DNA of 63,604 nt, the filler included. It is 4 parts of 4 records of this genome, joined end to end, with 100 filler letters (N's around TTAATTAATTAA, not from the genome) between each part and the next. Parts side by side here need not be neighbours in the genome. Positions count along the whole stretch, not along the records: positions 28,762 to 48,708 come from SRR20825019_1384; 3 more parts are not named here. The stretch is one strand, 5' to 3'. Position 1 is the stretch's first letter, and every line of letters begins with the position of its first letter. The position numbers and the translations under genes were made by a program. The notes under the pieces are model-generated. The model had not been told where the DNA came from and ran no database searches. It was given only the letters and a program-made list of their open reading frames with translations. Positions 28,804 through 48,708 of this stretch are shown piece after piece.

Positions 28804-28815
28804 GGCTTCCTGGGG

Positions 28816-29160
28816 TCAGAGAATGCCGTGATCATCGCCCATCAGATTATCAAGATCACTGAGATGGCCACGGATTTTTTCCCGATTGGCCAGTTTCTCT
28901 CGAGCCGCAGCAGGCAGGTCAGTAAATAAAATGACCTCTCTGTCTATCAGCGTATTGATTAGGTCTTCCAGTACCCTCACCAGGGCCATATCAGAAACGG
29001 TAAGTGCAGCGCGGGCGGCTTCCGCATCCGCATTGTCTGATTGAGTCAGAAAAGCGATAAGTTCTGCTGATTCAATCGATAGATACTCTTCCGCACCGGA
29101 TTCAGGTGAATCAAAGACCGCGATGATTTTTCCCTGCTCATCTCGTTTTACATAGGCCAT
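28816..29160 (-). CDS. Conserved hypothetical protein divergent from the T1SS operon ('tryptophan synthase beta-like' label family)
   Basis: MAYVKRD..., SD..LVRVLEDLI..LI....I.FTDLP.AA..KL pattern; RBS-like GGAG. Confidence 0.65.
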   Translation of the reverse strand: MAYVKRDEQGKIIAVFDSPESGAEEYLSIESAELIAFLTQSDNADAEAARAALTVSDMALVRVLEDLINTLIDREVILFTDLPAAAREKLANREKIRGHLSDLDNLMGDDHGIL

Positions 29161-29274
29161 GGTGTCTGCTCCGGCTGTTGCTTGAAAGGCTGAAATTTAA
29201 TGTATAGTGGGCTTTACAGTAAAACAAAAAACTGTGAAACTCATCAAATTATTTAGATCCCAGCTAAGAAACAG

Positions 29275-31455: not shown

Positions 31456-31459
31456 TCGC

Positions 31460-32791
31460 ATGGCCTGGTTCAAACGCACAAACCCCGAAGATATTGAGTT
31501 CATGTCGGAAGTCAGCGCGGCGACGATGGAAAGTTCGCCCCGTACCGGCCATTCATTGCTGCTCCTGACCGCTTTGTTTTTTATTTGTGCCATCTGGTGG
31601 GCAAGTCAGACCGAACTGGATGAAGTCACCCGTGGCGAAGGCAAGGTTATTCCGTCGAGCAAAATCCAGATAGTACAAAATCTGGAGGGCGGGATTCTGG
31701 CTGACATACTCGTCTCAGAGGGGGAAATAGTCGATAAAGGGGATGTACTGGTCAAAATTGACGATACCCGCTTCACCTCCACATTCCAGGAAACCAAACT
31801 CAAGTATTGGGAATTGCTGGCCAGGGCCGCAAGGTTAAGGGCTGAAGCGGCAGGTGAGGAATTGCAGCTGCCGCCGGAACTGGTGGAAGAAAGGCCTGCA
31901 CTGGCAGCGGCTGAGCGACGTTTATACGAGGCCCGTCAGCGTGAACTGCAGAGTAATATTGACGTATTAGAGCAGCAAGCGCGTCAGCGTCAGCAGGAAC
32001 TGGCCGAAAACCAGGCCAAGTTGAATAAGTTGACCACTAGTTATGAGCTCAGCAAGCAGGAGCTGGAAATGTCGGAGCCACTGGTGTCAGTCGGCGTGAT
32101 TTCCGAAGTCGAAGTGCTGCGTCTCAAACGTACGGTCAATGACCTGCGGGGGGAGATGGAAACAACCAGACTGGCGATCCCCCGTATCCGTTCCAGTCTG
32201 TCAGAAGTCAGACAGAAAATGGAAGACGTCAAAGTGCGTTTCCAGTCTGAGTCTTCCTCACAGTTGAGTGAAGTTCAGGCCGAGCTGAGCAGAACCGAAA
32301 CCACGATCACTTCCGCAGAAGACCGTGTCAGCCGCACCCAAGTGAGAGCGCCGGTAAGGGGTAAGATCAATCGTCTGATGATTAACACCGTGGGCGGGAT
32401 TATTCAGCCGGGGGCCGACATTGTTGAAATCGTACCGCTGGATGACAGTCTGCTAATCGAAGCCCATATCCGACCAGCGGATATTGCTTTTCTGCGGCCA
32501 GGCCAGAAGGCGATGATTAAGTTTACCGCTTATGACTTTTCAATCTATGGTGGTTTGCCGGCAACGCTGGAGCGGATAAGCGCCGATACGATTACCAACG
32601 AAGAAGATGAAAGTTTTTACCTGATTTATTTACGTACGGAAAAGAACTATATTGACAGTAGCAAGGGTCAGCTGGAAATCATTCCAGGGATGACCGTGAC
32701 GGTCGATATTCTTACAGGCAAGAAAACAGTATTGGATTATTTGCTGAAGCCAATACTGAAGGCCAAAAATGAGGCGCTCCGTGAGCGTTGA
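31460..32791 (+). CDS. HlyD-family T1SS membrane fusion protein
   Basis: GEGKVIPS, LEGG, PGMT..VDILTGKKTVLDYLLKP, ends ALRER. Confidence 0.95.
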   Translation: MAWFKRTNPEDIEFMSEVSAATMESSPRTGHSLLLLTALFFICAIWWASQTELDEVTRGEGKVIPSSKIQIVQNLEGGILADILVSEGEIVDKGDVLVKIDDTRFTSTFQETKLKYWELLARAARLRAEAAGEELQLPPELVEERPALAAAERRLYEARQRELQSNIDVLEQQARQRQQELAENQAKLNKLTTSYELSKQELEMSEPLVSVGVISEVEVLRLKRTVNDLRGEMETTRLAIPRIRSSLSEVRQKMEDVKVRFQSESSSQLSEVQAELSRTETTITSAEDRVSRTQVRAPVRGKINRLMINTVGGIIQPGADIVEIVPLDDSLLIEAHIRPADIAFLRPGQKAMIKFTAYDFSIYGGLPATLERISADTITNEEDESFYLIYLRTEKNYIDSSKGQLEIIPGMTVTVDILTGKKTVLDYLLKPILKAKNEALRER

Positions 32792-33459
32792 TGGACGGAA
32801 TCATCACAATGAATGAGACAACCATGATACAGACCCGCCTGTTTGCCGTGATACCTGAAAAAAGTAGGCTGAAAGCAATCAAGCAGGCACTGCCGGAAGT
32901 TTACGACTTTAACGATTTTGATGATCTGGATGCCATGCAGCTTGCTGCAGCCGATGATGCACCCCGCATTATCCTGTGTCATCAATCCTTATTTGAAGGT
33001 GACTATAATCATCAACTGGCGTCGTTGACACAGCAGTGTGGCACTAGCCGGGTACTTATCATCGGGCCGCCGCGGCCCATGGCAATTCAGATTGCTGCGC
33101 TGAAGCAGGGGGCTCGGGGTTATTTTAATGATGATTTACCCCTGGAAAAGCTGCATGATGCCATGCAGTTGATTCTGAATGGTGAGGTGTGGGTGGAGCG
33201 TCATGTTATTTCCGGTCTCATTGATGAACTGACACATAAACCGCAAATTAGTGACGCGCAGCGTCAGGCCTTGGAAACACTGTCTCCGAAGGAGTTGGAG
33301 GTGGCGAAACAAGTCAGCCACGGTGCCACTAATAAAATGATCGCCAGGCAAATGAACATTACAGAACGCACGGTGAAAGCACATTTGACGACCATATTTC
33401 AGAAAATGAATTTGCCCGATCGTTTGTCCCTTGCAATATTATTTCGGGATCTGCGTTAA
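32791..33459 (+). CDS. LuxR-family regulator with degenerate receiver domain
   Basis: C-terminal HTH (NKMIA..MNITERTVKAHLT); no canonical phospho-Asp seen; start 32791 or 32809. Confidence 0.85.
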   Translation: MDGIITMNETTMIQTRLFAVIPEKSRLKAIKQALPEVYDFNDFDDLDAMQLAAADDAPRIILCHQSLFEGDYNHQLASLTQQCGTSRVLIIGPPRPMAIQIAALKQGARGYFNDDLPLEKLHDAMQLILNGEVWVERHVISGLIDELTHKPQISDAQRQALETLSPKELEVAKQVSHGATNKMIARQMNITERTVKAHLTTIFQKMNLPDRLSLAILFRDLR

Positions 33460-33592
33460 GGATTCTGTTGCGGGACAGCTTCTGTTGTAATACAGTTGCT
33501 TATGAGTACAACTTAAAACAATTTTGGACGTTTTATTTTGTGATGCCTGAGGGGCCGCCGAAAGCATCACACCTACAGATAGGATCAGCATT

Positions 33593-34909
33593 ATGAAATC
33601 ATTAGCTATCGTCATCCCCTTATGCATCTCGGTTGGCATTGCTAACGCCGACACGCTGCAAGAAGCAGTGGATGCAACGGTAAAAACCAACCCTGATGTT
33701 CTCGCGGCCACTCATGAACGTCAGGCAGTTTCGAAAGAAATCGATCAAGCCCGAGCGGGGTACTACCCCACATTGGATCTCGCAGTCGGTACCGGTTGGG
33801 AAATGACCGACAATCCAAGTACGCGGGCTTCCGGCAAAGGTGAAGTCCACCTTAACCGCGATGAAGCCAGTCTTAACCTCAGACAGATGCTGTTTGACGG
33901 TTTTGAGACCAGTAATGAAGTCGACCGGCAACAGGCCAGAACCAATTCCCGAGCTTTCGGTGTTTACAGCTCAGCTGAAAATACCGGTCTGGAAGCCGTT
34001 GAAGCTTATCTCAATGTACTGCGTCGCCAGAAACTGGTTGAGCTAGCACAGACTAATCTGGAAGCGCATCAGCGTACGCATGATCAAATCATGTTGCGGG
34101 CGGAGCGCGGTGTCGGCCGCAGAGCCGATATGGATCAGAGTCTGGGTCGTCTGGCTTTGGCCGAAGCGAATCTGCAATCAGAGCAAAGTAATCTGAGAGA
34201 CGCTGAAACCGCTTATCTGCGTGTGGTGGGTATGCCCCCATCATCTCTGAGCAAGCCGGATTCACCAATTACCATGATTCCGGCCAGTATCGATGAAGCC
34301 ATTTCGGTGGCGATTGAAAATCATCCGACCCTGCGACTGGCTACCTACGATGTTGAATCCGCTCAGGAACAGCACGCTACAGCGAAAGCACCTTTCTATC
34401 CTGACCTGCATCTTGAACTCGGCACCCGTGCTGATCATGATATCGATGGACAAGAAGGCAAGGACAAAGACATCACTGCGATGCTGCGCCTGCGCTATAA
34501 CCTATACAACGGTGGTCGTGACAGTGCCCGTCGTGAAGAAACGGCATTTCTGATTAATCAGGCAGCGGAAATCCGTAATAATACACACCGTCAGGTTGAA
34601 GAGAGTGTTCGCTTGTCCTGGAATGCCTGGCAAACACTGAGAGCGCAGATGCCGGCCCGTGAGCAGCACGTGCAGTCGAGTGAAAAAGCCCGTGATGCCT
34701 ACCAGCAACAATTCAGCCTCGGTCAGCGGACTTTGCTTGATTTGCTGGATTCTGAAAACGAAGTTTTCAGAGCCCGTACCGCACTGGTCAATACCCAATA
34801 TGATGAAATGTATGCGATGTATCGCATTCTCAACAGCATGGGTATGCTGCTGCAAGGTCTGGATGTAGAAATCCCGGAAGCTGCGACCACCGTCGCCGCC
34901 AATCAATAA
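33593..34909 (+). CDS. TolC-family T1SS outer membrane protein (AggA/LapE-like)
   Basis: Signal peptide, GYYPTLDL, LRQMLFDGF, QFSLGQRTLLDLLDSENE. Confidence 0.93.
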   Translation: MKSLAIVIPLCISVGIANADTLQEAVDATVKTNPDVLAATHERQAVSKEIDQARAGYYPTLDLAVGTGWEMTDNPSTRASGKGEVHLNRDEASLNLRQMLFDGFETSNEVDRQQARTNSRAFGVYSSAENTGLEAVEAYLNVLRRQKLVELAQTNLEAHQRTHDQIMLRAERGVGRRADMDQSLGRLALAEANLQSEQSNLRDAETAYLRVVGMPPSSLSKPDSPITMIPASIDEAISVAIENHPTLRLATYDVESAQEQHATAKAPFYPDLHLELGTRADHDIDGQEGKDKDITAMLRLRYNLYNGGRDSARREETAFLINQAAEIRNNTHRQVEESVRLSWNAWQTLRAQMPAREQHVQSSEKARDAYQQQFSLGQRTLLDLLDSENEVFRARTALVNTQYDEMYAMYRILNSMGMLLQGLDVEIPEAATTVAANQ

Positions 34910-34932
34910 CACCGGCAGATTTTCTCAAAGAT

Positions 34933-34964
34933 AAGCCACGACAGTTTTGTCGTGGCTTTTTTTT
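34933..34964 (+). terminator. Intrinsic terminator
   Basis: AAGCCACGACA/TGTCGTGGCTT plus T-run. Confidence 0.85.
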
Positions 34965-35050
34965 AATGACGTGAGAACTGGTTTTTTTCTGGTTTGGAAA
35001 CGTTCGTGCTATCATACGATGCCCTATTGGCGGGTTATTTAAGAGAGTTC

Positions 35051-35566
35051 ATGAGTAAGCAATCATCATTCACCTACGAAGAATTATTGCAATGCGGACA
35101 CGGACAGATGTTTGGTCCCGGCAATGCCCAGTTACCCATTCCAAACATGCTAATGATGGACCGCATTACTCATATCTCCAACACCGGCGGAGCATATGGC
35201 AAAGGTGAAATCATCGCGGAGTTGGATATACACCCTGATCTGTGGTTTTTCGCCTGTCATTTTCCCGGTGATCCGGTCATGCCCGGCTGCCTCGGTCTGG
35301 ATGCCATGTGGCAACTGGTCGGGTTTTTCCTCGCCTGGGATGGTAATCCCGGCAGAGGTCGCGCTTTGGGTTCGGGAGAAGTCAAATTCACCGGCCAGGT
35401 CTTGCCGACAGCCAAAAAGGTGACCTACCGGATTGATCTCAAACGGGTGATCGCACGCAAGCTTGTCCTCGCCATCGCAGATGGTACAGTCTCGGTTGAT
35501 GGTCGCGAAATTTATGTGGCCAAAGACCTGCGTGTCGGTTTGTTTACCTCCACAGATGATTTTTAG
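35051..35566 (+). CDS. fabA: 3-hydroxydecanoyl-ACP dehydratase
   Basis: [20 protein letters not shown]; start ATG 35051. Confidence 0.96.
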
Positions 35567-35572
35567 GATTTA

Positions 35573-36793
35573 ATGATGAGACGTGTTGTTGTCACAGGAC
35601 TGGGTATTACATCCTGTCTGGGGCTTGATGCCGCGACGGTCACTGAATCCCTGCGCCAAGGTCGCTCCGGTATTCGTTTCAAGCAGGATTATGCCGATAT
35701 GGGTTTTCGTAGCCATGTCGCCGGGACCATTGATATCGATTTCAAGGAATACATCGATCGTAAGACCCTGCGTTTTATGGGCGATGCTGCAGCTTACAGT
35801 TATATTGCGATGCAGCAGGCCATCGATGATGCCGGTCTGAAAGAAGATCAGATTTCCAATACCCGCACCGGTCTGATTATGGGCTCGGGTGGTGCTTCCT
35901 CATCCAACCAGGTGGAAGCGGCTGATATTCTGCGTGAAAAGGGCCTGAAACGTATCGGCCCTTATCGTGTGACCCAGGTGATGGGCAGTACCACATCAGC
36001 CTGTCTGGCGACCCCGTTTAAAATCAAAGGCGTTAACTACTCGATGTCCTCCGCCTGTGCAACTAGTGCACACTGCATCGGCACGGCAATGGAACAGATC
36101 CAGCTGGGTAAACAGGACATCGTGTTTGCTGGCGGCGGCGAGGAAGAACACTGGTCAATGAGCTCCCTGTTTGATGCCATGGGCGCGCTATCTACCAAAT
36201 ATAATGACACCCCTGAGAAAGCCTCACGCGCCTATGATGCCGATCGTGACGGATTCGTTATTGCCGGTGGTGGCGGTGTTGTCGTGCTGGAAGAGTACGA
36301 GCATGCCAAAGCCCGCGGTGCCAAAATCTATGCCGAACTGACCGGTTACGGCGCGACTTCAGATGGTTATGACATGGTTGCTCCCTCGGGTGAAGGTGCC
36401 GAGCGCTGTATGCAACTGGCGATGTCTACCGCCCGTGAGAGAGTGCAGTACATCAATGCTCATGGTACTTCGACACCGGTAGGCGATTTGGCAGAGCTGG
36501 GCGCGATTAAACGCACCTTTGGTGATGCAATTCCGCATGTCGGTTCGACCAAATCTTTGTCGGGTCACTCGCTTGGTGCTGCCGGTGTACAGGAAGCGAT
36601 TTACAGCCTGCTGATGCTAGACAATGATTTTCTGGCGGCCTCAGCCAATATCAATACGCTGGATCCGGAAGCGGAAGGCATGCCGATTCTGCGCGAACGG
36701 ATTGATAACGCCGGGCTGACCTCGGTGATGTCGAACAGTTTTGGTTTCGGCGGTACCAATGCCTGTCTGGTCTTCGAAAAGCTTGATGATTAA
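35573..36793 (+). CDS. fabB: Beta-ketoacyl-ACP synthase I
   Basis: [32 protein letters not shown]. Confidence 0.96.
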
Positions 36794-36795
36794 TT

Positions 36796-36824
36796 AAAAA
36801 AGCCACCTCGCGGTGGCTTTTTTT
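36796..36824. terminator. Bidirectional intrinsic terminator
   Basis: AAAAAAGCCACC/GGTGGCTTTTTT. Confidence 0.85.
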
Positions 36825-36999
36825 ATGATTCCAGATCGGCGTCTGTTACCGGACCGCGCTTGCCGGCAACGGCTTCCTGAATCAGTGTGATGAGTTTTTG
36901 TTTCTTATCCGGGTCGTCCAGATATTTCGAGCTGAAAGTAATGCCGAATTTGTCTGCGTACTGTTTAACCAGCATGACCAGAATGGTTTCGTCTTCCAC
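36823..36999 (-). CDS. Small hypothetical protein (58 aa)
   Basis: GGGAG RBS, GTG start, MEDETILVMLVKQYADKFGITFSSKYLDDPDKKQKLITLIQEAVAGKRGPVTDADLES, stop at the shared terminator. Confidence 0.75.
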   Translation of the reverse strand: MEDETILVMLVKQYADKFGITFSSKYLDDPDKKQKLITLIQEAVAGKRGPVTDADLES

Positions 37000-37050
37000 G
37001 TTATACTCCCGTTAAATAATCCAACATTATATCGTTCAAAGCAGCAAGCC

Positions 37051-37815
37051 ATGAAATTGCAATACCAAGACACGGGTGAGGGGCATCCCTTACTGATTAT
37101 CCACGGCCTGTTCGGCTCATCTGATAACTGGCGCAGTATGGCCAGATATTTTTCCCGGTATTACCGGGTTATCAGTGTCGATCTGCGTAACCATGGCCGT
37201 TCCCCCCATAGTGAGGATCAGGACTTCAACAGTATGGCGGCAGATATTGAGCAGTTGTGCGGCGATTTGGGACTGCACAAGCTGCATCTTCTGGGACATT
37301 CGCTGGGCGGTAAAGTAGCGATGCAATTTGCGGCCGAACAGGCTGCCTGGATTGATAAACTGGTGGTGGTCGATATCGCACCTCGACGCTACTTCAGTGA
37401 GCACACGCCACTGATGGACGCCATGCTGGCACTGGATCTGAAAAGTCTGGATTCACGGGCGGCGGTCGATGAAGCCTTATCGGACAAAGTCAGAGATAAA
37501 AGTGTCCGTCAGTTTCTGCTGATGAACCTGCAGTCTGATGACAACGGGCTTTACTGGCGTATTAACCTGCCGGCATTGAAAGCTAATTATCAGCAACTCA
37601 TGGCCCCGGTGTGTGAGGGTATGACAGTCTCTGCTAACAGCCTGTTTGTCTACGGTGCCTTGTCAGAATATGTCACAGCAGAAGACCGAAGCTTGATTAA
37701 ACATCATTTCCCGCAGGCGCAATTTCAGGCTATCGACAAGGCTGGCCACTGGGTGCATGCCGAACGACCCCAGCAGTTCAAACAAGTCGTCGAGGACTTC
37801 TTACGCCATGATTGA
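37051..37815 (+). CDS. ybfF: Alpha/beta hydrolase esterase (YbfF-like)
   Basis: HGLFGS, DLRNHG, GHSLGGK, AGHWVHAE; start ATG 37051. Confidence 0.88.
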   Translation: MKLQYQDTGEGHPLLIIHGLFGSSDNWRSMARYFSRYYRVISVDLRNHGRSPHSEDQDFNSMAADIEQLCGDLGLHKLHLLGHSLGGKVAMQFAAEQAAWIDKLVVVDIAPRRYFSEHTPLMDAMLALDLKSLDSRAAVDEALSDKVRDKSVRQFLLMNLQSDDNGLYWRINLPALKANYQQLMAPVCEGMTVSANSLFVYGALSEYVTAEDRSLIKHHFPQAQFQAIDKAGHWVHAERPQQFKQVVEDFLRHD

Positions 37816-38158
37816 GAAAATTTTACTGGAAGAACTGATTCAGTTTCGTAAGGAGCGTGATTGGGAGCAGTTTCATAATCCCAAGGATATTGCCATTTCC
37901 CTGTCTATTGAAGCGGCAGAACTGCTGGAGTGGTTCCAATGGCGTAATAAGGAAGAGGTCAGCGCCATGCTGGCCTCAGATAAACGTGAACAGTTGGAAG
38001 ATGAAATTGCGGATGTCGCCGTCTATCTGAGTTATCTCTGCCATGATCTGGGCATTGATCTGAATCAGGTGGTCAAAAATAAAATGGTCAAGAATGCGGC
38101 CAAATATCCCAAAGACAGAGTCAAAGGCCGTGCTGATAAGTACAACGAGTATGAATAA
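37808..38158 (+). CDS. MazG-like nucleotide pyrophosphohydrolase
   Basis: RDWEQFHNPKD, EAAELLE.FQW, DEIAD. Confidence 0.9.
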   Translation: MIEKILLEELIQFRKERDWEQFHNPKDIAISLSIEAAELLEWFQWRNKEEVSAMLASDKREQLEDEIADVAVYLSYLCHDLGIDLNQVVKNKMVKNAAKYPKDRVKGRADKYNEYE

Positions 38159-38215
38159 TCAGTTAGGATTTGGCATTTAGCAAAGCGGCCTTGCCGCCTT
38201 TATGGAAAGACTGAA

Positions 38216-39073
38216 ATGAGCGCGATTGTTTTCCTGGTTCAATGCCCCGACCGCAAAGGACTGGTGGCCGGAATCACCGGCTTTTTTGCCGAACGTGAGT
38301 TTAATATTCTGCACTGTCAGCAGTACACCGATGTCGAAAACGGCCAGTACTTTATGCGAATCAGGCTGGAAGACGAGGGGCAGATGGCGACTGAGCAACT
38401 CGAGAACGAGTTTGAACAGTTTGCCCGGCCGATGAACCTGACCTGGTCGGTTCGCTACAGTAGTAAACCCCACCGTGTAGCATTGATGGTCACCCGAGCC
38501 TCACATTGTGGCTATGATTTATTATTACGGGAGCTGGAAGGCGAACTCAAATGCGAGATCCCGCTCATTATCGGTAACCATGCTGATCTGGAATATATGG
38601 CGCGTCAGTTCGACAAGCCCTTTTATCATCTGCCAATTACTAAAGACAGCAAAGCGCAGCAGGAGGCAGCGATCAAGGCACTGCTGACGCAATACCAGAT
38701 CGATCTGGTGGTGATGGCGCGTTATATGCAGATTTTGTCTGAGCAGTTTGTCAAAGAATTCGCCGGCCGGGTCATTAATATTCATCACGGCTTTCTGCCT
38801 GCCTTCCAGGGGGCCAAGCCCTATCACCAGGCTTATGATCGTGGTGTCAAACTGATTGGTGCCACCGCACACTACGCGACGGCAGAGCTGGATGAAGGCC
38901 CGATTATTGAGCAGGATGTAGAACGCGTCATGCATGACAACAGCCCGGAAGATCTGGTCATGATCGGTAAGGATATTGAAAGGCTGGTATTGGCCAGAGC
39001 GGTAAAAGCCCATATCGAGCACCGCATTATTATCAGCGGGCGCAGAACTATCGTCTTTTCCGAGGGCGCCTGA
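38216..39073 (+). CDS. purU: Formyltetrahydrofolate deformylase
   Basis: CPDRKG ACT domain, ARYMQILS, INIHH.FLPAF.GAKPY, DEGPIIEQ. Confidence 0.95.
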   Translation: MSAIVFLVQCPDRKGLVAGITGFFAEREFNILHCQQYTDVENGQYFMRIRLEDEGQMATEQLENEFEQFARPMNLTWSVRYSSKPHRVALMVTRASHCGYDLLLRELEGELKCEIPLIIGNHADLEYMARQFDKPFYHLPITKDSKAQQEAAIKALLTQYQIDLVVMARYMQILSEQFVKEFAGRVINIHHGFLPAFQGAKPYHQAYDRGVKLIGATAHYATAELDEGPIIEQDVERVMHDNSPEDLVMIGKDIERLVLARAVKAHIEHRIIISGRRTIVFSEGA

Positions 39074-39204
39074 TTAAAATCTGAAGAGGCCCTGTTTTTT
39101 CAAGTTATCCGCACAGGTCACTGATTTTCACAAATAGATATATCGATGAATAATCTGTGCCCATCAGCGTGATCAGCGGATTGATTCTGCACAAGGGAAT
39201 AACA

Positions 39205-39966
39205 ATGAACTCATCTCCAGTCATCATGATCACCGGCGCCACTTCTGGTTTCGGTGAAGCCAGTGCGCGGTTGTTTGCCGACAAGGGCTGGCGTTTGATT
39301 ATCACCGGCCGCAGGCAGCAACGGCTGGATGAATTACAGCAGGCGCTGGGCGGAGCAGAAAAAGTCCATACCTGCTGTTTCGATGTCAGTGACAGACAAG
39401 CGGTTGAACAGGCTTTTTCCAGCCTACCAGAGCCATTCAGTCAGATCGATGTATTGCTCAATAACGCCGGGCTGGCACTGGGGCTTGAGTCTGCCCATCA
39501 AACCCGGCTTGATGACTGGGAGAGCATGGTGGATACCAATATCAAAGGGTTGCTGTATTGCACCCGGACGGTATTACCCAACATGGTCGAGCGCAAGGCG
39601 GGTTACATTATCAATATCGGTTCGGTGGCCGGGAACTGGCCTTATCCCGGCGGCAATGTCTACTGCGGCACCAAGGCTTTTGTCCGTCAGTTTTCTCTGG
39701 CTATCAGAGCTGACCTGCTGGGCAGCAATGTCAGGGTGACGAATATCGAGCCGGGCAATGCTGAAACGGAGTTTTCCATGGTGCGCTTCAAGGATGATAA
39801 AAGTCGTGCTGACAAGGTTTATCAGGGGACCATTGCCCTGCGTGCTCAGGACGTCGCCAATACCGTGTGGTGGCTGGTGAATACACCGGAACATGTCAAT
39901 GTGACCACGCTGGAACTGATGCCCACCCAGGAAGCAAATGGGCCGATGGCTTTCCATCGAGAATAA
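39205..39966 (+). CDS. ydfG: NADP-dependent SDR oxidoreductase (YdfG-like)
   Basis: TGATSGFG, NNAGLALG, YCGTK. Confidence 0.85.
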   Translation: MNSSPVIMITGATSGFGEASARLFADKGWRLIITGRRQQRLDELQQALGGAEKVHTCCFDVSDRQAVEQAFSSLPEPFSQIDVLLNNAGLALGLESAHQTRLDDWESMVDTNIKGLLYCTRTVLPNMVERKAGYIINIGSVAGNWPYPGGNVYCGTKAFVRQFSLAIRADLLGSNVRVTNIEPGNAETEFSMVRFKDDKSRADKVYQGTIALRAQDVANTVWWLVNTPEHVNVTTLELMPTQEANGPMAFHRE

Positions 39967-40023
39967 AAAAGCCGCGCTTGTGCCTAGGCGTTAAATTAAC
40001 GTGTGGCTAAACCCAAGACTTGT

Positions 40024-40051
40024 ACGCGCCAGCATTGGTGGCGCGTTTTTT
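40024..40051 (+). terminator. Intrinsic terminator
   Basis: ACGCGCCA/TGGCGCGT plus T-run. Confidence 0.65.
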
Positions 40052-40058
40052 ATATCAA

Positions 40059-40100
40059 ATAACCGGGAGGTACGTAGGTTTGAATCCTCGCTGCCCCACC
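40059..40100 (+). pseudogene. Degenerate 3' half of a tRNA
   Basis: ATAACCGGGAGGT..AGGTTTGAATCCT..CCCCACC resembles the 3' side of an anticodon arm, a T-arm and an acceptor strand. Confidence 0.45.
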
Positions 40101-40110
40101 TTTATTTTGA

Positions 40111-40186
40111 CACGTGATGGAGCGGTTTGTGGCTCGCTTGACTCATAATCAAGAGATCATAGGTTAAAGTCCTTCTCCTGCTACCA
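40111..40186 (+). pseudogene. Decayed tRNA-fMet-like gene (anticodon CAT)
   Basis: 76 nt; TGGAGC..GCTCG D-arm, CTTGA-CTCATAA-TCAAG anticodon arm, ends ACCA; acceptor and T stems are mismatched. Confidence 0.7.
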
Positions 40187-40364
40187 TTTTATTACCCATA
40201 TAGCCTGATCCTATTTTATTTATTTATTATCACAGCAAGGCAAATAAAAGGATTAAGTGGAGATTTATTACCCATTTTATTACCCATAAAAGTTCTCCTA
40301 CCTGCGCGGGAGCGGATCCATAGGCAGAAGGGGGAAATATCATGCTGGCCATACTACTTGTAAA

Positions 40365-40403
40365 CAAAAAGGCATCTTCAAATAATTGAAGATGCCTTTT
40401 TTT
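40365..40403. terminator. Bidirectional terminator hairpin
   Basis: AAAAAGGCATCTTCAA/TTGAAGATGCCTTTTT. Confidence 0.75.
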
Positions 40404-40491
40404 AATAGCTCTCAATAGACTGTACATTAAGCGTTTTATAGCAACACTTTAGTTTAACGCTTAGCGCTTGTGCGCGGCTTTTAAATCAAAC

Positions 40492-40836
40492 TTAAGAAAA
40501 CAGCCAGGTTGTCGGGTTAGGATAAGGCTGATTCTGGTCCAGATACTTCATGCCTTTGACGCAGCGGACAATAACCCATATTACCCAGAACAGCAGGATG
40601 AAATAACCGACCACGGCCATGGCGAGAAGTACGCCAATAAACAGATACAGCAGGCCGATCCAGAAGGTCCGGATCTGAAACTGATAATGGCTCTGCAGCC
40701 AGGCTGGCGCATCGTTCTTGTTTACGTAAGCGATGATGACGCCGATGATGCCCAGAAACTGAATAAAGATATTGACCAGAAACAACAGGTAAATCACTTT
40801 GGCTGTGTTCTGACTGTTTTGTTCACTGTCTGCCAT
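40492..40836 (-). CDS. DUF4870-like small membrane protein
   Basis: IIGVIIAYV, WLQSHYQFQIRTFW, RCVKG. Confidence 0.8.
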   Translation of the reverse strand: MADSEQNSQNTAKVIYLLFLVNIFIQFLGIIGVIIAYVNKNDAPAWLQSHYQFQIRTFWIGLLYLFIGVLLAMAVVGYFILLFWVIWVIVRCVKGMKYLDQNQPYPNPTTWLFS

Positions 40837-40948
40837 CTCACCCTTCCTTGTAATTAATCACAGCGTTAATCTAGCAAATTTTTAGCAGTTATGCCGGTTT
40901 GAAATTGACCGTAGCTATCTGTTGATAGCTACGGTTAGTCTCACTGTG

Positions 40949-43087
40949 TCAGCCTCCGAAATCAAAGCGGATACCGGTCATCACGGTGCGACCGATAATG
41001 GGGGCTTCATCCTTGAGGAAGCTTTGATGACGACGACCATCCTCATTCAACAGATTACGGCCCTGAACAAAGATTTCGGCCCCTTTCAGACTGTCTGGGG
41101 CCCAGCTGGCATTCAGTGATAGCAGATCGTAGCCATCGGTATCAGATTCCAGCTCAGCACTGTCACTCTGTCTGAACACATGCCGGTAATCCACACTGAG
41201 TGACCAGTCCTGATAGGCTGTGTCGACTCCGAAGCCCAATCTTCCCGGGCTGATACGTGGCAGATTATCACTATTATCCAGTTTGGCGCGGACATAATCA
41301 CCTGACAGACGCAGTGTCACAGGCACATCGCCCTCAATAACATCCCAGGCAGCAGTGAATTCAGCACCATAGAAGCGGGCATCATCCTGCTGATTGAAAA
41401 CCAGGGTATCGCCCTCAATCAGAATTGGATTGCCGGTGCCATCATCGCGTGAGGCCAGATAGATAAAGTCCTGAACATGATTATAGAACAGGGTGGTATC
41501 GAAACGGAAAGGGCCAGAATGACGGTCCAGACCGATTTCGAAGTTGGTATAGATCTCTTCATCCAGACCTGCATCACCGACTTCGACGGTGCCGGAAGCA
41601 GCATGTGCACCAAAGGCATACAGCTGTTCAGCAGATGGTGCCCGTTCAGAACGGGTGACGGCCAGACGCAGATGATGATTTTCATCCAGATCAATAATTG
41701 AGCCGGCTGAGAGACTGAGCGGGGTGAAGCTGCGGCTACCCAGATTGGCTTCCTGATGCAGTTCTTCCCCGCTTGGCAGATCGATATGACGTTCTTCCTC
41801 GAGCGTGACCGGATCAGAACGAACATGATCCACCCGCGCGGAAAATTCCAGCCGACCGAAATCAGTCAGTCTCTCTTCCAAAGCAAATACACCCATGGAC
41901 CGGGTATCATTATCACGGATATAGAAGCCATCGCCACCATGTCCGCCGTGACCATGACCGGCACCCTCGGCACCGAACTCACGGTTATTCAACTGTAGAC
42001 CGATAACACCCTGCCAAAGCCCGATAGGGTTATGAACCAGTTCCAGACGGGCTTCTGTCTCGTCATTGGTGAATTCGGTTTCCACACCGCGTTCTTCCAG
42101 TTCACCATTAAAGAATTCACCACCGATTTCCTGCTGGTTGAACTCGGTATGAGCGAGTTTCAGCCGAGCAGTGCTGAAGCCCGGCAGCGGATTATTAAAT
42201 TCGCTACGGAAATCGACACGATCGTAATCGGCACGAATACGCTCCTGTTCCTCTTCACCTTCACCCAGAAAGACTTCAGGAATACCGTAATCCGTGCGCC
42301 AGCGGCTATAACCCAGACCAGCATGGCCCCAGTCACCCTTGTACAAGCCGGTTACCGAGAAGCTATCACTGACGGCGTCACTGTTTTGCAGGGTATCTTT
42401 GTCACCACGGGTCTGACCGATTTGCTGGTAACCATCGATATTAAAATCGTGGCTGCGACGTAGACCGTAATCAGTGCGTAATACAAAGTTATCAGTAACC
42501 GGCAGTTCGAGACCGATATTGCCCTGGCGCTCATCGCCGTTATAACCATAGCCCAGCTGTCCATTGACGCGGGGAGCATCGCCAAATTCGGGATCAAAAC
42601 GGCCACTTTTGACATTGATAACACCGCCGACGGCACCGCTGCCAAAAAGCAGGGTGGCAGGGCCGCGGAATACTTCGATTTGCTCGGCGCGACTCGGATC
42701 AATGGCAACGGTGTGATCACCGCCTTCACCTGAGACATCGACCGTTTTCAGACCGTCTTCCAAGACCTGAACACGTGATCCCTGCAGGCCGCGGACTACC
42801 GGGCGACCAACGCCCGGACCGAAATCAGAGTTGGACACCCCCGGCACGCTATTTAGGGTTTCACCCAGCGTGGCAGCACGTTGTTTATCCAGCGCTTCGT
42901 CTGCCAGTACAGTAACTGGAAAGATAAGCTCATCAGCGGTACGGGCACCCAGCGGATCGGCGGTGACCGTCAGGCTGGGAATTTCAATAACTTCAGCAGT
43001 ATTATTCTCGGCAGCTGCAACGCCGGAAACAGGCAGGGCTGACAGAATGCTACCAACCAGCAGTACGGATTGTTTTTTCTGGAACAT
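40949..43087 (-). CDS. TonB-dependent receptor, ZnuD-like (probable Zn/metal uptake)
   Basis: Signal peptide, plug motifs (TLGETL..PGV, RPVVRG, RGPATLLFGSGAVGG), His-rich loop GHGHGGHGG, LYAFGAH.A, C-terminal aromatic residue. Confidence 0.88.
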   Translation of the reverse strand: MFQKKQSVLLVGSILSALPVSGVAAAENNTAEVIEIPSLTVTADPLGARTADELIFPVTVLADEALDKQRAATLGETLNSVPGVSNSDFGPGVGRPVVRGLQGSRVQVLEDGLKTVDVSGEGGDHTVAIDPSRAEQIEVFRGPATLLFGSGAVGGVINVKSGRFDPEFGDAPRVNGQLGYGYNGDERQGNIGLELPVTDNFVLRTDYGLRRSHDFNIDGYQQIGQTRGDKDTLQNSDAVSDSFSVTGLYKGDWGHAGLGYSRWRTDYGIPEVFLGEGEEEQERIRADYDRVDFRSEFNNPLPGFSTARLKLAHTEFNQQEIGGEFFNGELEERGVETEFTNDETEARLELVHNPIGLWQGVIGLQLNNREFGAEGAGHGHGGHGGDGFYIRDNDTRSMGVFALEERLTDFGRLEFSARVDHVRSDPVTLEEERHIDLPSGEELHQEANLGSRSFTPLSLSAGSIIDLDENHHLRLAVTRSERAPSAEQLYAFGAHAASGTVEVGDAGLDEEIYTNFEIGLDRHSGPFRFDTTLFYNHVQDFIYLASRDDGTGNPILIEGDTLVFNQQDDARFYGAEFTAAWDVIEGDVPVTLRLSGDYVRAKLDNSDNLPRISPGRLGFGVDTAYQDWSLSVDYRHVFRQSDSAELESDTDGYDLLSLNASWAPDSLKGAEIFVQGRNLLNEDGRRHQSFLKDEAPIIGRTVMTGIRFDFGG

Positions 43088-43252
43088 GATTTTTCCTCGT
43101 AACACGTTCCCGACTGGTCGATTTGTTCATGAGATAACGGGCAGCCATCCCATTTGGGAGCAGCGCCACATCTCATCACGGAGAGATCACAGTCGGGACG
43201 ATCGCCATAGTGGATGACAGGCGATCAGAATCTTAAAAACGGATTGTGTATT

Positions 43253-43543
43253 TCAGGAAAAAACAGGTGGGGCGCGGATAGCGTGTTGGTGGCGAGTCGT
43301 CGCCGGCAGTTGAAACGCATAAAGGGGCGATTCAGAAACGAGGCTTTCGGTCTGCAGGCTGACCGCCATGGCAGGCGTGATGTCAGCAACAGGCAGATGA
43401 TTAATTGCATTTAGGCGTTCACACTGCGCTTCAGCAGTATGGAAGGGATGTTCAGCATCATGCCAGACAGCAAACGACTGCAACAGCAGCACGATAGCTG
43501 CCAGCGCAAGAATAAAATGTCGATTGAGTTGTCTGTTGAACAC
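43253..43543 (-). CDS. DUF2946-like uORF / RAPP-motif putative ribosome-arrest peptide
   Basis: N-terminal hydrophobic segment, WHDAEHPFH....QC, C-terminal IRAPPVFS; directly upstream of the TBDR. Confidence 0.78.
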   Translation of the reverse strand: MFNRQLNRHFILALAAIVLLLQSFAVWHDAEHPFHTAEAQCERLNAINHLPVADITPAMAVSLQTESLVSESPLYAFQLPATTRHQHAIRAPPVFS

Positions 43544-43551
43544 GATGCTGT

Positions 43552-45029
<1,478 letters not shown>

Positions 45030-45083
45030 ACCTTGTTGCTTGCTCCTGTCTGGCCACAGTCTTGTATGGAGACGAGAAAATAT

Positions 45084-45156
45084 TTATCCGCAGATTGCAC
45101 AGATTTTTGCAGATTGTGTTTTCAATGATCTGCGTCTATCGGCGTAATCTGCGGAT
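45084..45156. repeat. REP-like CGCAGATT palindromic element (copy 2)
   Basis: TTATCCGCAGATTGCACAGATTTTTGCAGATT ... GATCTGCGTCTATCGGCGTAATCTGCGGAT. Confidence 0.75.
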
Positions 45157-45162
45157 GTTTCA

Positions 45163-45984
45163 TTAAATGTCGCGAAGCAGTTCGTTGATACCCACTTTAC
45201 CGCGGGTTTTCTCGTCAACCTGCTTGACGATAACGGCGCAGTAGAGGCTGTAGCTGCCGTCTTTGGATGGCAGGTTACCGGATACCACAACAGAACCGGC
45301 GGGGATGCGACCATAGGTGATTTCACCGGTCATACGGTTGAAAATCTTGGTGCTTTGGCCGATGTAAACGCCCATGGAAATCACTGAGCCTTCTTCCACT
45401 ACGACGCCTTCCACAACTTCAGAACGGGCACCGATAAAGCAGTTATCTTCGATAATAGTCGGGCCGGCCTGCAGCGGTTCCAGCACGCCACCGATACCGA
45501 CGCCACCGGACAGGTGCACGTTTTTGCCGATTTGGGCACAGCTGCCGACGGTAGCCCAGGTATCAACCATGGTGCCGGAATCAACATAGGCGCCAATGTT
45601 AACGTAAGAGGGCATCAATACCACGCCCGGCGCGATGTAGGAACCACGACGCACAGCGGCAGGCGGAACAACTCGTACACCAGCCTTATTGAAATCGGCT
45701 TCGGAGAAGTTGGCGAATTTGGGTTCGACTTTATCGAAGTACTGGGTTTCGCCACCAGCCATTGGATGGTTGTCGTTCAGGCGGAAAGACAACAGAACGG
45801 CTTTTTTCAGCCATTGATTAACGACCCAGTCACCGTTTTGTTTTTCGGCTACCCGGGCACTGCCGTTATCCAGCATGGCCAGCGCTTCATTGACCGCATT
45901 GCGGACATCGCTGTCAGCATTGGACGGGTTGATTTCAGCACGGCGCTCAAACGCTTCTTCGATAATATTCTGAATATCGCTCAT
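45163..45984 (-). CDS. dapD: Tetrahydrodipicolinate N-succinyltransferase
   Basis: [32 protein letters not shown]. Confidence 0.97.
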
Positions 45985-46000
45985 GAAGTTCTCCATTGAT

Positions 46001-47197
46001 TTAGTTTAAATTTGTGATCAGGCTGCGGATGCGGTGAGCAGCCTCAATACATTCTTCCAGTGGTGCCACCAGGGCCATACGAACGCGATTGGCGCCCGGG
46101 TTACCCTCTGCTGTATCGCGGCCCAGATAGCTGCCTGGCAAAACGGTGACATTCTTATGCTCAAACAGCTGGCGGGCAAATTCGGTGTCGGCGACCGGTG
46201 TCTCTGCCCATAGATAAAAGCTGGCTTCCGGCATCGAGACTTTCATTACCGGAGACAGGATGTCCAGTACCGCCTCGAATTTTTCCCGGTAAAGCTCGCG
46301 GTTATGCGCCACATGAGCTTCATCTTCCCAGGCCGAAATCGAAGCAGCCTGGGTTGCCGGGGGCATCGAACAACCGTGATAGGTCCGGTAACGCAGAAAC
46401 TGTTTCAAAATGGCAGCGTCTCCGGCGACAAAGCCGCTGCGCAAGCCCGGTGCATTGGAACGCTTGGACAGGCTGTGGAATACCACGCAACGGCTCATAT
46501 CGGTGTAACCGCCGTTATAAGCGGCCTGCAGCAGGCCGACGGGGGGCTGCGTTTCATCGTGATAGATTTCGGAGTAGCACTCATCGGCGGCAATCACAAA
46601 ATCATGTTGGTGGGCCAGCTCGATAAGGCGCTGCAGGGTTTGTTCATCAATCACTGCGCCGGTAGGATTGCCCGGGCTGCAGATATATAAGAGCTGACAG
46701 CGCTGCCAGGTGGCTTCACTGACAGACTCAAAATCAGGAATAAAGCCATTCGCCGCATCGCAGTTCAGATAAAACGGTTCGGCACCGGCCAGGATCGCCG
46801 CCCCTTCGTAAATCTGATAGAAAGGATTGGGCATGACGACCAGTGGATTTTTACTGCGGTCGATGACGGCCTGGGCGAAGGCAAATAATGCCTCACGGGT
46901 GCCGTTAACCGGTAAAACCTGGGTCACGGCATTGATATGGCCGTCCAGCTGAAACCGTTGATTCAGCCAGGTTGCAATCGCGTGCCGCAGTTCATTGCTG
47001 CCGGCTGTGGTCGGATAGCTCGACAGTCCATGCAGATGAGTAATCACCGCTTCAGTGATAAAGCCCGGTGTCGGATGTTTGGGTTCACCGATGGAAAGCG
47101 CAATATGAGGCAGGTCCTCCGGCGGATGACAACCTTGTTTGAGCTGCGCCAGTTTTTCAAAAGGATAGGGATGCAGTTTTGCCAGTTCCGGATTCAT
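46001..47197 (-). CDS. dapC: Succinyldiaminopimelate transaminase
   Basis: PYPFEKL, LSIGEP, SLSKRSN.PGLRSG. Confidence 0.93.
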
Positions 47198-47269
47198 AAC
47201 GACCAGAGAAGAGTGAAAAATCAGACCATTATAACGGGTTAGCTGCCTCTCGTGGTATAAGGTGTCGCC

Positions 47270-48154
47270 ATGATCACTACATATAACAAAGAATATTCAC
47301 TGGCCGTCGGTGCCATCCTCTTCTCTGCCGCGATGTGGGGACTCATCTGGTATCCGATGCGGTTATTGGAGCAAGTCGGTATGCCGGTTGTTTGGACGAC
47401 CTTGGTTGCCTATATCGCCGCGGCACTGACGGCGACAGTGCATTTGCTCTGGATCAGAAAACGGCTTCAGCATTACTGGCCACCGACGCTATGGGCATTG
47501 GCGCTGGCTGCCGGACTGACCAACCTGGCTTTTCTGGTAGCCCTGATTGAAGGTGAAGTGGTGCGGGTAATGCTCCTGTTTTATCTGTCACCGCTGTGGT
47601 CTGTGCTGCTCGGTCACTGGTGGCTCGGAGAACGCATTTCGCGGCAGTCGCTGATGATGATACTGATCGCAATGTCAGGCACGTTTATGATGCTCTGGCA
47701 TCCGGAAATCGGCTTCCCCTGGCCACATGGGCTGGCTGACTGGCTGGCCTTGTTTGCCAGTTTTATGTTTTCGGTAAATAACGTGCTCAGTCGCAAGCTG
47801 GCGGTGGTGCCGATGGAAATCAAAACTTTTACTGTTTACTGGGGCGTGGTGATCGTAGCGATTGCCGTGCTCTTTCTGCAGCAGGCAACTCTCCCACAGG
47901 TCAGCCTCAATATCTGGCTGATGGTGGCCGTGTTTGGCGGTCTCGCTTTTGTGTCGATGACGGTGGCGGTGCTGTATGGTCTGGCGCGGATTGCGGTATT
48001 CCGGGCGGCCATTTTAATGCTGTTTGAATTACTGGTGGCGGCGATATCAGCCTGGCTTCTGACGGATGAGAGCATGAGCGGCGCTGAATGGCTGGGCGGG
48101 GCACTGATATTTATCGCGGCATATGGCATGGCCAGACTGGGAAAAATGCCCTGA
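47270..48154 (+). CDS. DMT/EamA family transporter
   Basis: About 10 TM segments, RVMLLFYLSP.W. Confidence 0.85.
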   Translation: MITTYNKEYSLAVGAILFSAAMWGLIWYPMRLLEQVGMPVVWTTLVAYIAAALTATVHLLWIRKRLQHYWPPTLWALALAAGLTNLAFLVALIEGEVVRVMLLFYLSPLWSVLLGHWWLGERISRQSLMMILIAMSGTFMMLWHPEIGFPWPHGLADWLALFASFMFSVNNVLSRKLAVVPMEIKTFTVYWGVVIVAIAVLFLQQATLPQVSLNIWLMVAVFGGLAFVSMTVAVLYGLARIAVFRAAILMLFELLVAAISAWLLTDESMSGAEWLGGALIFIAAYGMARLGKMP

Positions 48155-48255
48155 AGGTTGGGGCAGCAGGCTGCTTCACGTTAAAATGAGGTTTTAGCTG
48201 ACTTACCGTGATTACGGTGAGCAGAGTGTTTTTCATCAACCAATCGGGTTAAAGC

Positions 48256-48648
48256 ATGATCAAATCAATTGCGCACGCCAGTTTTCTCGTTGAAGACGTC
48301 CAGCGCTCACTCAAATTCTATTGTGATGTGCTGGAGTTGCCACTCAATCCTAACCGCCCTGACTTCCCATTCGATGGTGCTTGGCTGGATATCGGTGATG
48401 ATCAGATGATTCACCTGATGCAGTTACCCAACCCGGACTCCAATGAAGGCCGTCCGGCCCATGGTGGGCGTGACCGTCATCTGGCTCTGGTGGTCGATGA
48501 TCTTGAGGCTTTGGCAAGCCGTCTGGAGACGGCCAATATTGAATTTTCGCGCAGCAAGTCCGGACGGGCCGCCTTTTTCTGTCGGGATCCTGATGGTAAT
48601 GCTTTGGAGTTTGCGGAGGATTTCACCCCGCCACCACTGCAAAAATAA
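48256..48648 (+). CDS. VOC/glyoxalase family protein
   Basis: H.S..V.D...S..FY, GRDRH, RDPDGNALE. Confidence 0.88.
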   Translation: MIKSIAHASFLVEDVQRSLKFYCDVLELPLNPNRPDFPFDGAWLDIGDDQMIHLMQLPNPDSNEGRPAHGGRDRHLALVVDDLEALASRLETANIEFSRSKSGRAAFFCRDPDGNALEFAEDFTPPPLQK

Positions 48649-48708
48649 TCAGTTGGAGCACTGATCAGTGACTTACAGAGTTACTCACATTTTCTGTGGA
48701 TAACTCTG

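Follow-up and report, generated by a model that had tools for sequence, protein, structure and literature searches.

A small RAPP-containing reading frame between dapE and a ZnuD-like receptor gene in Methylophaga: a candidate zinc-relieved ribosome arrest leader

The locus analysed here raises the question of what role is played by a small open reading frame (ORF) that lies between dapE and the gene for a ZnuD-like TonB-dependent receptor, in the order dapE, 96-codon leader ORF, receptor on the minus strand of DNA whose host group is Methylophaga. The window, by which is meant the whole stretch of DNA that was analysed, comprises 63,604 nucleotides (nt) including filler and consists of four joined parts, and the locus lies inside the part at 28,762-48,708, which comes from SRR20825019_1384. 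The leader is a real, well-conserved element, and the sequence evidence makes a zinc-responsive arrest leader its most likely identity. In the reading that we favour, to which we assign a probability of roughly 0.6, the ORF would be a cis-acting ribosome arrest peptide of the CruR/CutF type, whose arrest would be relieved by zinc and, while it lasts, would unmask the ribosome-binding site of the receptor and perhaps also block Rho.

The anatomy on which this reading is built was described in a first-pass annotation, and its features are all present. The peptide has the 96 residues, the hydrophobic N-terminus, the HxxxHxxH motif and the one cysteine that were claimed for it; RAPP occupies residues 90-93 (43265-43276) in a C-terminus that reads HAIRAPPVFS, with three residues (VFS) before the stop; 8 nt separate the ORF from the dapE stop codon (43552-43554); and 165 nt separate it from the likely start of the receptor, ATG 43087 behind GAGGA, the receptor carrying the reported GHGHGGHGG loop. 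An alternative receptor start, as given by the ORF listing, is GTG 43105. The basic residues R4 and R8 precede the hydrophobic residues 10-27, the single cysteine lies in the sequence C41-E-R-L, so that the peptide is without CxxC, and the distance from C41 to R90 is 49 residues. An AlphaFold2 model of the peptide (mean predicted local distance difference test score, pLDDT, 81.8) contains a helix over residues 2-34 (block means 92-94), at the end of which the three histidines lie, and a short helix over residues 39-48, which follows a turn and bears C41, the rest being coil. The receptor matches the ZnuD model NF038289 at 367.5 bits, which is far below the cut-off of 950 and permits the description "ZnuD-like" only, and it matches the TonB-copper model at 77.3 bits.

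The pattern of conservation along the peptide exceeds what would be produced by chance. The search for homologues returned 46 at an E-value of at most 0.01, every named one of which is from Methylophaga, and in an alignment of 29 Methylophaga homologues (A1) the invariant residues are L19, L20, Q22, S23, A25, V26, W27, H28, H32, H35, C41, I89, R90, P92 and P93. A profile built from the Methylophaga proteins was then run on 1.84 billion proteins at a threshold E-value of 1e-3, and it matched 95 cluster representatives, nearly all of them 90-110 amino acids (aa) long and of a common layout. In an alignment of 77 of these representatives (A2), H32, C41, P92 and P93 never vary, and conservation reaches 90% or more at Q22, H28, H35 and R90; R[AGS]PP is present in 76 of the 77, and in all 76 the cysteine stands 47-50 residues before the arginine. 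The linker has an identity of 0.18 in this alignment, as against 0.87 for IRAPP, and the mean column identity of residues 52-88 in A1 is 0.43.

The family is also widespread. Of 400 genomes sampled from the class to which the M. thiooxydans genome belongs, 94 contain a match to the profile (a count that includes three unpublished genomes, which were left out of later steps), almost always with one copy per genome, and the small ORF is encoded in every one of the 80 loci that were fetched. The arrest motif in these loci is RAPP in 67, RGPP in 7, RDPP in 3, RSPP in 2 and KAPP in 1; its distance to the stop is 1-10 residues, 3 being the commonest value, and all 80 loci have a cysteine 46-51 residues ahead of R[AGDS]PP (KAPP in one). 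The first-pass description of the peptide as a His-ligand variant of a CruR-like leader therefore stands as far as the RAPP leader and its His ligands are concerned, but not in its suggestion of a special derivative, because the peptide belongs to a large family. Nor does the lack of CxxC mark the link to zinc, since 54 of the 80 members retain CxxC and likewise precede zinc-type modules, and the idea that the absence of CxxC defines a zinc type was discarded on these counts. Four longer members (P0057, P0063, P0074 and P0081, of 127-145 aa) have extra histidines between the anchor and the conserved cysteine, either as a second His motif or in a long His-rich insert, with the distance from cysteine to RAPP unchanged.

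Profile comparisons suggest that this family is a short-form sister of CruR/CutF that borders on DUF2607. The search with DUF2946 and DUF2607 that the first-pass annotation proposed gives a divided result, in that the window peptide falls below both models while wider relatives lie just under the cut-offs and single members pass. For DUF2946 (PF11162, cut-off 23.7 bits) there is no match in the window peptide, and one of the 29 Methylophaga homologues matches, only at an E-value of 6.4; for DUF2607 (PF10795, cut-off 24 bits) there is no match in the window peptide or in 28 Methylophaga homologues, although one Methylophaga homologue carries the UniRef label DUF2607. One member of the profile family (L078), which has CQIC, RAPP and a three-residue tail, passes DUF2607 at 29.9 bits, and another (G392) passes DUF2946 at 25.6 bits, so that a single G392 gene satisfies both the family profile and that of DUF2946. 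PF10795 gives only two matches over 301 genomes, and the Pfam model is thus too narrow to trace the leader family. DUF2946 proteins occur in 14 of the 400 sampled genomes and have lengths of 121-185 aa, with 47-51 residues from CxxC to the arginine, and hhalign pairs C41 with the first cysteine of CxxC and RAPP with RAPP.

Within Methylophaga the setting of the leader is fixed and its cargo is not. In all 14 genomic loci the ORF has exactly 96 codons and dapE lies immediately 5' of it, at a gap of about 8-13 nt; the start codons are GTG in 6, TTG in 7 and ATG in 1, and none has a Shine-Dalgarno (SD) sequence. The short gap, the predominance of non-ATG starts and the lack of an SD sequence fit re-initiation by ribosomes that leave dapE, and the leader is probably translationally coupled to that gene. 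In 9 of the 14 loci the leader heads a ZnuD-like receptor (at 80-93% identity), and in the other 5 it heads three genes, which encode a BBP2-type porin, a ZnuA-family protein (PF01297, 145.4 bits) and, last, an ABC-3 permease. Each cargo encodes zinc-type metal importers and lies between identical flanking genes, the leader remaining constant while the cargo is swapped. The interval from the leader ORF to the DUF4870 gene in these loci (equivalent to 40837-43252 in the window) looks like a case of cassette exchange behind a fixed regulatory leader. The DUF4870 membrane protein gene itself (26.7 bits; 40492-40836, minus strand) follows the receptor and is kept 3' of both cargo types in all 14 loci. 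The five porin-type loci have in addition, between an arsC-like gene and dapE, a gene for a secreted-looking protein of 170-172 aa that has no family match and is absent from the window. In the 3' end of dapE, just 5' of the leader ORF, there are two terminator-like hairpins with T-rich tails (43568-43645, minus strand), which are consensus matches only.

A switch by which the leader could act on the receptor is suggested by the RNA. When the interval from the A88 codon to the third codon of the receptor is folded, the minimum free energy (MFE) is -65.6 kcal/mol (z-score -3.54), and none of 200 shuffled sequences is as stable. The fold comprises three helices, of which P1 joins the tail of the leader ORF to the SD sequence and AUG of the receptor (Table 1). 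The consensus of the eight loci with long spacers has 37 pairs, 10 of them with compensatory changes; 89.5% of its cells are paired, as against 37-47% when the partners are slid, and its covariation score was reached by none of 500 shuffles. At one locus (L008), a base of the tail has changed from U to C and its partner in the SD sequence from A to G. In the five loci with short spacers (four of the porin type), which were folded singly, the tail or the stop codon pairs with the SD sequence or the AUG, and a helix from the tail to the SD sequence or AUG is thus found in 13/13 of the Methylophaga loci folded. The RAPP codons change synonymously between loci while the tail codons are constant, which suggests a constraint at the level of the peptide in RAPP and at the level of the RNA in the tail. 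The tail-SD duplex is better than all 140 control windows in the window locus and in 7 of 9 receptor-type relatives. Over 90 loci, for which the downstream start codons were called automatically, it ranks among the best 5% of controls in 30 and among the best 1% in 22, so that the pairing is an enrichment and not a universal feature of the family. The porin-type Methylophaga loci, when the whole spacer is folded, pair the tail with the AUG and first codons instead. A second regulatory layer is possible: over the last 90 nt of the leader ORF and 30 nt of the spacer, C exceeds G in all 95 loci measured (mean C 0.354, G 0.196), compared to 59/95 in the 5' part of the ORF and 17/95 in the downstream gene. 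Together the sequences point to a stalled ribosome that would unmask the SD sequence and AUG, with the blocking of Rho as a possible addition.

Table 1. Positions in the window of the dapE, leader and receptor features, and of the elements of the predicted RNA fold.
Feature	Position	Strand	Basis
dapE (succinyl-diaminopimelate desuccinylase)	43552..44682	-	NF009557 581.7 bits, TIGR01246 560.8 bits
Leader ORF, 96 codons and stop, GTG start, no SD sequence	43253..43543	-	ORF listing; 46 homologues at E<=0.01
Hydrophobic segment, residues 10-27, candidate export signal or anchor	43463..43516	-	A1 column identity 0.86; within predicted helix 2-34
Proposed metal-binding sensor H28-x3-H32-x2-H35-x5-C41, residues 28-41	43421..43462	-	Invariant in A1
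Linker, residues 42-88	43280..43420	-	From residue 52, length fixed and sequence free; predicted coil
Candidate rut site, C-rich and G-poor stretch	43251..43325	-	C 20-21, G 7-9 per 50 nt
Arrest motif I89-R90-A91-P92-P93	43265..43279	-	Identity 0.98 in A1, 0.87 in A2
P1 5' strand (anti-SD), last base of P92 codon, V94-F95-S96 codons, first base of UGA	43255..43268	-	MFE fold; consensus columns 15-28 with 208-221
P2 hairpin, GAUCGCC ... GGCGAUC	43199..43227	-	4/9 pairs with compensatory changes
P3 long hairpin, closed by CCCGACUG / CAGUCGGG	43108..43198	-	4/9 closing pairs with compensatory changes
P1 3' strand, SD sequence AGGAAAAA (43090-43097) and AUG (43085-43087) of receptor	43084..43097	-	MFE and consensus fold
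ZnuD-like TonB-dependent receptor, 712 aa from ATG 43087	40949..43087	-	Plug and beta-barrel domains; ZnuD best NCBIfam match
GHGHGGHGG loop of receptor	41933..41959	-	Translated sequence

The sequence analysis establishes the build of the leader, its family and gene neighbours, the covariation in the RNA structure and the excess of C over G; from these we infer that arrest occurs, that zinc acts as the signal, which way the switch would work and where in the cell the metal would be sensed. Ribosomes that finish dapE would re-initiate on the leader ORF, and the nascent chain would halt the ribosome when Pro92 of RAPP is in the P site and Pro93 in the A site, at which point the His3-Cys motif some 50 residues back would have just left the exit tunnel behind the hydrophobic anchor. 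A ribosome so positioned would sit on precisely the 5' strand of P1, which begins at the final base of the P-site codon, and would occupy the last four codons; these would otherwise be paired with the SD sequence and AUG of the receptor 165 nt downstream. The stall would therefore open the ribosome-binding site of the receptor, and it would probably also shield the C-rich stretch on which Rho could load. The helix that masks the SD sequence and AUG and overlaps this footprint is present as a prediction only. Because of the P1 pairing, the default state should be "off" and stalling should turn the receptor "on", and since uptake is called for when metal runs short, the stall would be expected to hold in the absence of zinc and to give way once zinc binds. 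With ample zinc, binding of the metal to the nascent His3-Cys motif would release the arrest, termination would follow, the helix would re-form and the receptor would be switched off. A functional link of the leader to the zinc requirement of DapE is a conjecture.

The identification of the metal depends on the genes that the leader precedes. In 53 of the 80 loci the first same-strand gene 3' of the leader encodes a BBP2-type porin; in 16 it encodes a ZnuD-like receptor and in 3 a ZrgA-family protein (PF10986), the last being followed by an ABC ATPase, an FtsX/MacB permease and DUF3299 (the zrg operon); in 3 further loci another gene comes first, with ZnuA/ABC-3 or a ZnuD-like receptor one or two genes on, and 5 have no zinc-type module downstream. 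In 41 of the 53 porin loci a ZnuA-family gene is directly next, followed in 36 of those 41 by an ABC-3 permease. The tie to zinc-type uptake genes asserted in the first-pass annotation is thus borne out by the co-occurrence that it asked for, a zinc-type import module being downstream of the leader in 75/80 loci. ZnuD is the best NCBIfam match for 15 of the 17 receptors matched by phmmer. His-rich loops were discarded as a marker of zinc, since they occur in none of 45 ZnuA-family proteins and at least four histidines within 12 residues are found in only 2 of 17 receptors. Taken together, the neighbouring genes and the Zur boxes described below point to zinc, and it is only these that favour zinc over nickel or cobalt.

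The porin, ZnuA-family and ABC-3 permease genes form a recurrent three-gene set (L010:6380-9423 and 52 further loci among L050-L129), in which the porin is BBP2/OmpL-like, with an N-terminal coiled coil and a conserved GYLNxxHxH, and the ZnuA-family protein has GD[VI]HxxGNPH. No ATPase was found by Pfam among 11 tested of the 18 same-strand fourth genes after this set, which may be an undescribed unit for metal uptake from the outer to the inner membrane. A cargo unlike that of all other leaders is found at L122 (G353:C7), where an RSPP member with a 13/14 Zur-box match upstream is followed by a siderophore-type receptor (TIGR01783, 292.7 bits), a MerC-family protein and an ABC-2 transporter.

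It must be asked whether a conserved peptide in such a setting need be a regulator at all. ZrgD, a 101-aa single-pass protein of the zinc-regulated zrg operon, is described in the portions of PMC9820375 and PMC9817125 consulted as being so far without a function, and the leader, by analogy with the current view of ZrgD, could be a small and stable protein of the membrane that acts as a structural component or chaperone in zinc import, the RAPP motif slowing translation or being incidental. The modelled pLDDT and the two predicted helices with their His and Cys residues would suit such a protein, as would its conservation beside transport genes. A stable protein, however, would not account for residues 52-88, which are free in sequence, fixed in length and predicted to be coil, or for the near-invariance of RAPP and of its distance to the cysteine; the tail codons are constrained as RNA and pair with the SD sequence of the next gene, one leader precedes three unrelated types of transporter, and single zrgD knock-outs are reported, in those portions, to be without a growth phenotype. 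We consider this explanation unlikely.

A sensor of copper like CruR, with a downstream receptor that imports copper, is more unlikely still. The position of RAPP and the spacing of cysteine to RAPP are as in CruR, the hhalign pairing and the G392 match to DUF2946 extend the likeness, and CxxC is common in the family, all of which speaks for this reading. The transport genes do not agree: TonB-copper lies far behind ZnuD for the window receptor (77.3 against 367.5 bits) and is the best match for 0/17 of the phmmer-matched receptors, the neighbours are ZnuA-family, ABC-3 and ZrgA genes and not PCuAC, YcnI, CopC or PepSY, and 18 of 79 leader ORFs have a Zur box upstream. Four genomes (G138, G213, G305 and G329) have a DUF2946 gene of the CruR type and a member of the leader family at separate loci, which suggests distinct roles and parallel copper and zinc leaders in one cell.

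It is very unlikely that the leader instead monitors secretion or membrane insertion, with an arrest released by Sec-dependent pulling force and not by metal. An N-terminal hydrophobic segment combined with a C-terminal RAPP is what is found in ApdA, ApdP and SecM-type monitors, according to the parts of PMC12992588 and 10.1101/2025.02.05.636593 consulted, and the masking of an SD sequence is the classic secM-secA design, but the downstream genes are metal importers and not components of Sec or YidC, and the invariant His3-Cys motif would be left without a role.

The remaining issue is whether the receptor has a promoter of its own. For the Zur box we used as core consensus TGTTATANTATAACA. 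With at most three mismatches there is no match to it in 40949-43700, in keeping with the first-pass annotation, which had seen no Zur box in the spacer; over the whole window there are two matches, both outside the locus, compared to 1.67 expected by chance. A search for sigma-70-like promoters found none on the minus strand at 43088-43700, that is, from the spacer to just before the leader ORF. An independent Zur/Fur promoter in the spacer had been named beforehand as the observation that would count against the proposal, and neither a sigma-70-like promoter nor a Zur-box match was found in the spacer; the leader can be placed on the side of the dapE transcript, as claimed. In the wider family, 18 of the 79 leader ORFs are preceded by a match of at least 11 of 14 bases, and 10 by one of at least 13, while control regions give 0/80. 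The Methylophaga genomes (G001-G003; L185, L186 and L187) encode Fur and a second, divergent FUR-family protein, for which Zur is the best match (73.2 bits, cut-off 167). Since no canonical box precedes Methylophaga zrgA either, its absence at the window locus says little, and the combination of a divergent Zur-like protein with no canonical box before zrgA or the leader means that the genus may use a divergent Zur site. That the ORF is irrelevant to regulation, the receptor having its own promoter in the spacer with such a divergent site and the helices being an element of processing or stability, is a very improbable explanation, which gains from the conservation across loci of a T-rich block TTTTTAAGATT after the stop, from the Zur-like protein and from an 11/14 Zur-like match inside the spacer of two relatives, but which lacks a promoter or Zur-box match in the window spacer and leaves the conservation and spacing of RAPP unexplained.

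A number of observations weigh against the zinc-relieved arrest leader that we favour. With respect to the RNA, 7 of the 13 pairs of P1 never vary and only 1 is compensatory, and the structure was derived from the same sequences as were used to count covariation; the tail-SD duplex of the window, at -13.0 kcal/mol, exceeds the best control (-12.8) by a bare margin, only 30 of the 90 loci rank at or below 0.05, and in the narrow form of the test (-22 to +3) only 1 of 5 porin-type Methylophaga loci does so. The excess of C over G could stem from the codons of a Pro/Ala/Ser/Thr-rich linker and of RAPP, and GTG and TTG starts with no SD sequence leave the level of translation of the leader uncertain. 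With respect to the metal, zinc is assigned from neighbouring genes, the transport proteins (binding proteins and receptors) score below the family cut-offs, and the want of His-rich loops in the ZnuA-family proteins makes manganese or another metal possible; zrgA lacks an upstream canonical Zur box in two Methylophaga genomes, and a RAPP ORF lies 5' of zrgA in only 6 of 30 sampled zrgA loci. With respect to the family, the window peptide has no match at an E-value of at most 1 in the Pfam scan, 9 of 44 wider relatives match the C-terminal half of DUF2946 below its cut-off (best 18.4 bits compared to 23.7), 8 of 44 match DUF2607 below threshold (best 23.1 compared to 24), and the hhalign comparison of A2 with 13 DUF2946 sequences (probability 66.7%, E-value 5.3e-5) covers only the half from cysteine to RAPP.

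To our knowledge, metal-sensing arrest peptides have been documented so far only for copper (CruR and CutF). A zinc-responsive leader peptide, if that is what this element is, would add a post-transcriptional layer to zinc homeostasis alongside Zur. A broader proposal, which we hold tentatively and at slightly less than even odds, is that widespread nascent-chain zinc sensors of the ZrgD/DUF2607-like kind, with His/Cys ligands and RAPP, gate the porin-ZnuA-ABC-3 modules, the ZnuD-like receptors and the zrgA operons post-transcriptionally as the zinc counterpart of CruR/CutF, that this is the function of ZrgD, and that Methylophaga has made of it a dapE-coupled switch with no recognizable Zur box or promoter of its own, in which the leader by itself would control zinc import from the transcript of a zinc enzyme. 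If so, zrgD, a named gene without a function, would acquire one, and a family that occurs in about one in four of the genomes sampled from the class, and has been studied so far only in its copper-sensing relatives, would provide a compact and portable zinc-responsive switch. The fixed ruler of 47-50 residues from sensor to RAPP also offers a system in which to study how the binding of a ligand beyond the exit tunnel can lift an arrest at the peptidyl-transferase centre.

Comparison with known systems begins with ZrgD, which is annotated as DUF2607 in V. parahaemolyticus. Like ZrgD of the Vibrio zrg operon, which is about 100 aa long with one transmembrane helix in a Zur-regulated zinc-uptake setting, the window leader is a 96-aa peptide with a predicted helix over residues 2-34, here 5' of a ZnuD-like receptor and in its relatives 5' of zrgA operons; L078, a bona fide DUF2607 member, belongs to the leader profile family, and the leader lies directly before zrgA in three sampled loci. 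The window peptide, in contrast, scores below PF10795, and ZrgD is not described as a regulator in the literature examined. A homologue search with the zrgA-linked leader of L124 returned only its own cluster, and a RAPP motif in Vibrio ZrgD itself is something that we infer.

Arrest at RAPP is documented for CruR, ApdA and ApdP in the parts of PMC12992588, PMC9426467 and PMC10951233 consulted, and the leader shares with ApdA, ApdP and SecM-like RAPP/RGPP peptides a C-terminal RAPP core together with a localization signal, although the characterized members of that group monitor Sec or YidC. Small RAPP ORFs upstream of TonB-dependent receptors are recognized as a class in PMC12992588, where the portions consulted read them through copper, and His-only CutF-like proteins beside HupE/UreJ are suggested in PMC9973294, within similar limits, to be sensors of nickel or cobalt. 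None of the main texts of PMC12992588, PMC9426467, PMC9973294 and 10.1101/2025.02.05.636593 contains the word "zinc", and that of PMC12992588 has no occurrence of "porin", "ZnuA" or "DUF2607", although supplements may list such cases; a literature search, which likewise covered no supplements, found nothing that links the RAPP motif with zinc, or DUF2607 or ZrgD with arrest. Roy et al. note that no riboswitch is known for copper or zinc, the metals held tightest by proteins.

The leader resembles TnaC-tnaA in having a ligand-controlled stall near the end of an ORF that would hide a site for the loading of Rho (PMC9973294, as far as the excerpt extends), but TnaC senses free tryptophan in the exit tunnel and its ligand induces the stall, whereas here the sensor would be outside the tunnel and the ligand is proposed to release it. 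CutF of Rhodobacter capsulatus, a member of the DUF2946 family, is closer, being a nascent exported metal sensor whose stall at a C-terminal proline motif melts a stem that shields the next ribosome-binding site (10.1101/2025.02.05.636593 and PMC9973294, in the parts consulted); it differs in motif and metal, and it stalls in the copper-bound state and switches on a detoxifying oxidase, whereas the present leader would stall without metal and switch an importer on. Metal is sensed in the periplasm by CutF and, as has been argued, in the cytoplasm by CruR, and the present leader might sense it in either compartment.

The closest likeness is to CruR (Bordetella pertussis Bp2923, DUF2946), in which, according to the parts of PMC9426467 consulted, copper relieves the RAPP arrest and Rho then terminates, so that the uptake gene is kept on by stalling; the arrest itself has been demonstrated in vitro (PMC12992588, likewise in part). 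Both peptides have an N-terminus of the export type and RAPP three residues before the stop, in both the metal-ligand motif lies 49 residues before the arginine of RAPP (C90 to R139 in CruR, C41 to R90 here), the spacer to the TonB-dependent transporter is 162 nt in CruR and 165 nt here, and each ORF contains a stretch in which C exceeds G, to which the rut site of CruR has been mapped. The present leader differs in its length (96 aa compared to 145 aa), with the sensor directly following the anchor, in its three histidines and one cysteine where CruR has CxxC, in its lack of a PF11162 match, in having neighbours of the zinc and not the copper type, and in lying 8 nt after dapE where CruR is the first gene of its operon. 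Finally, the documented mechanism of CruR is termination by Rho, whereas here it is a helix between the tail of the leader and the SD sequence of the receptor that is predicted.

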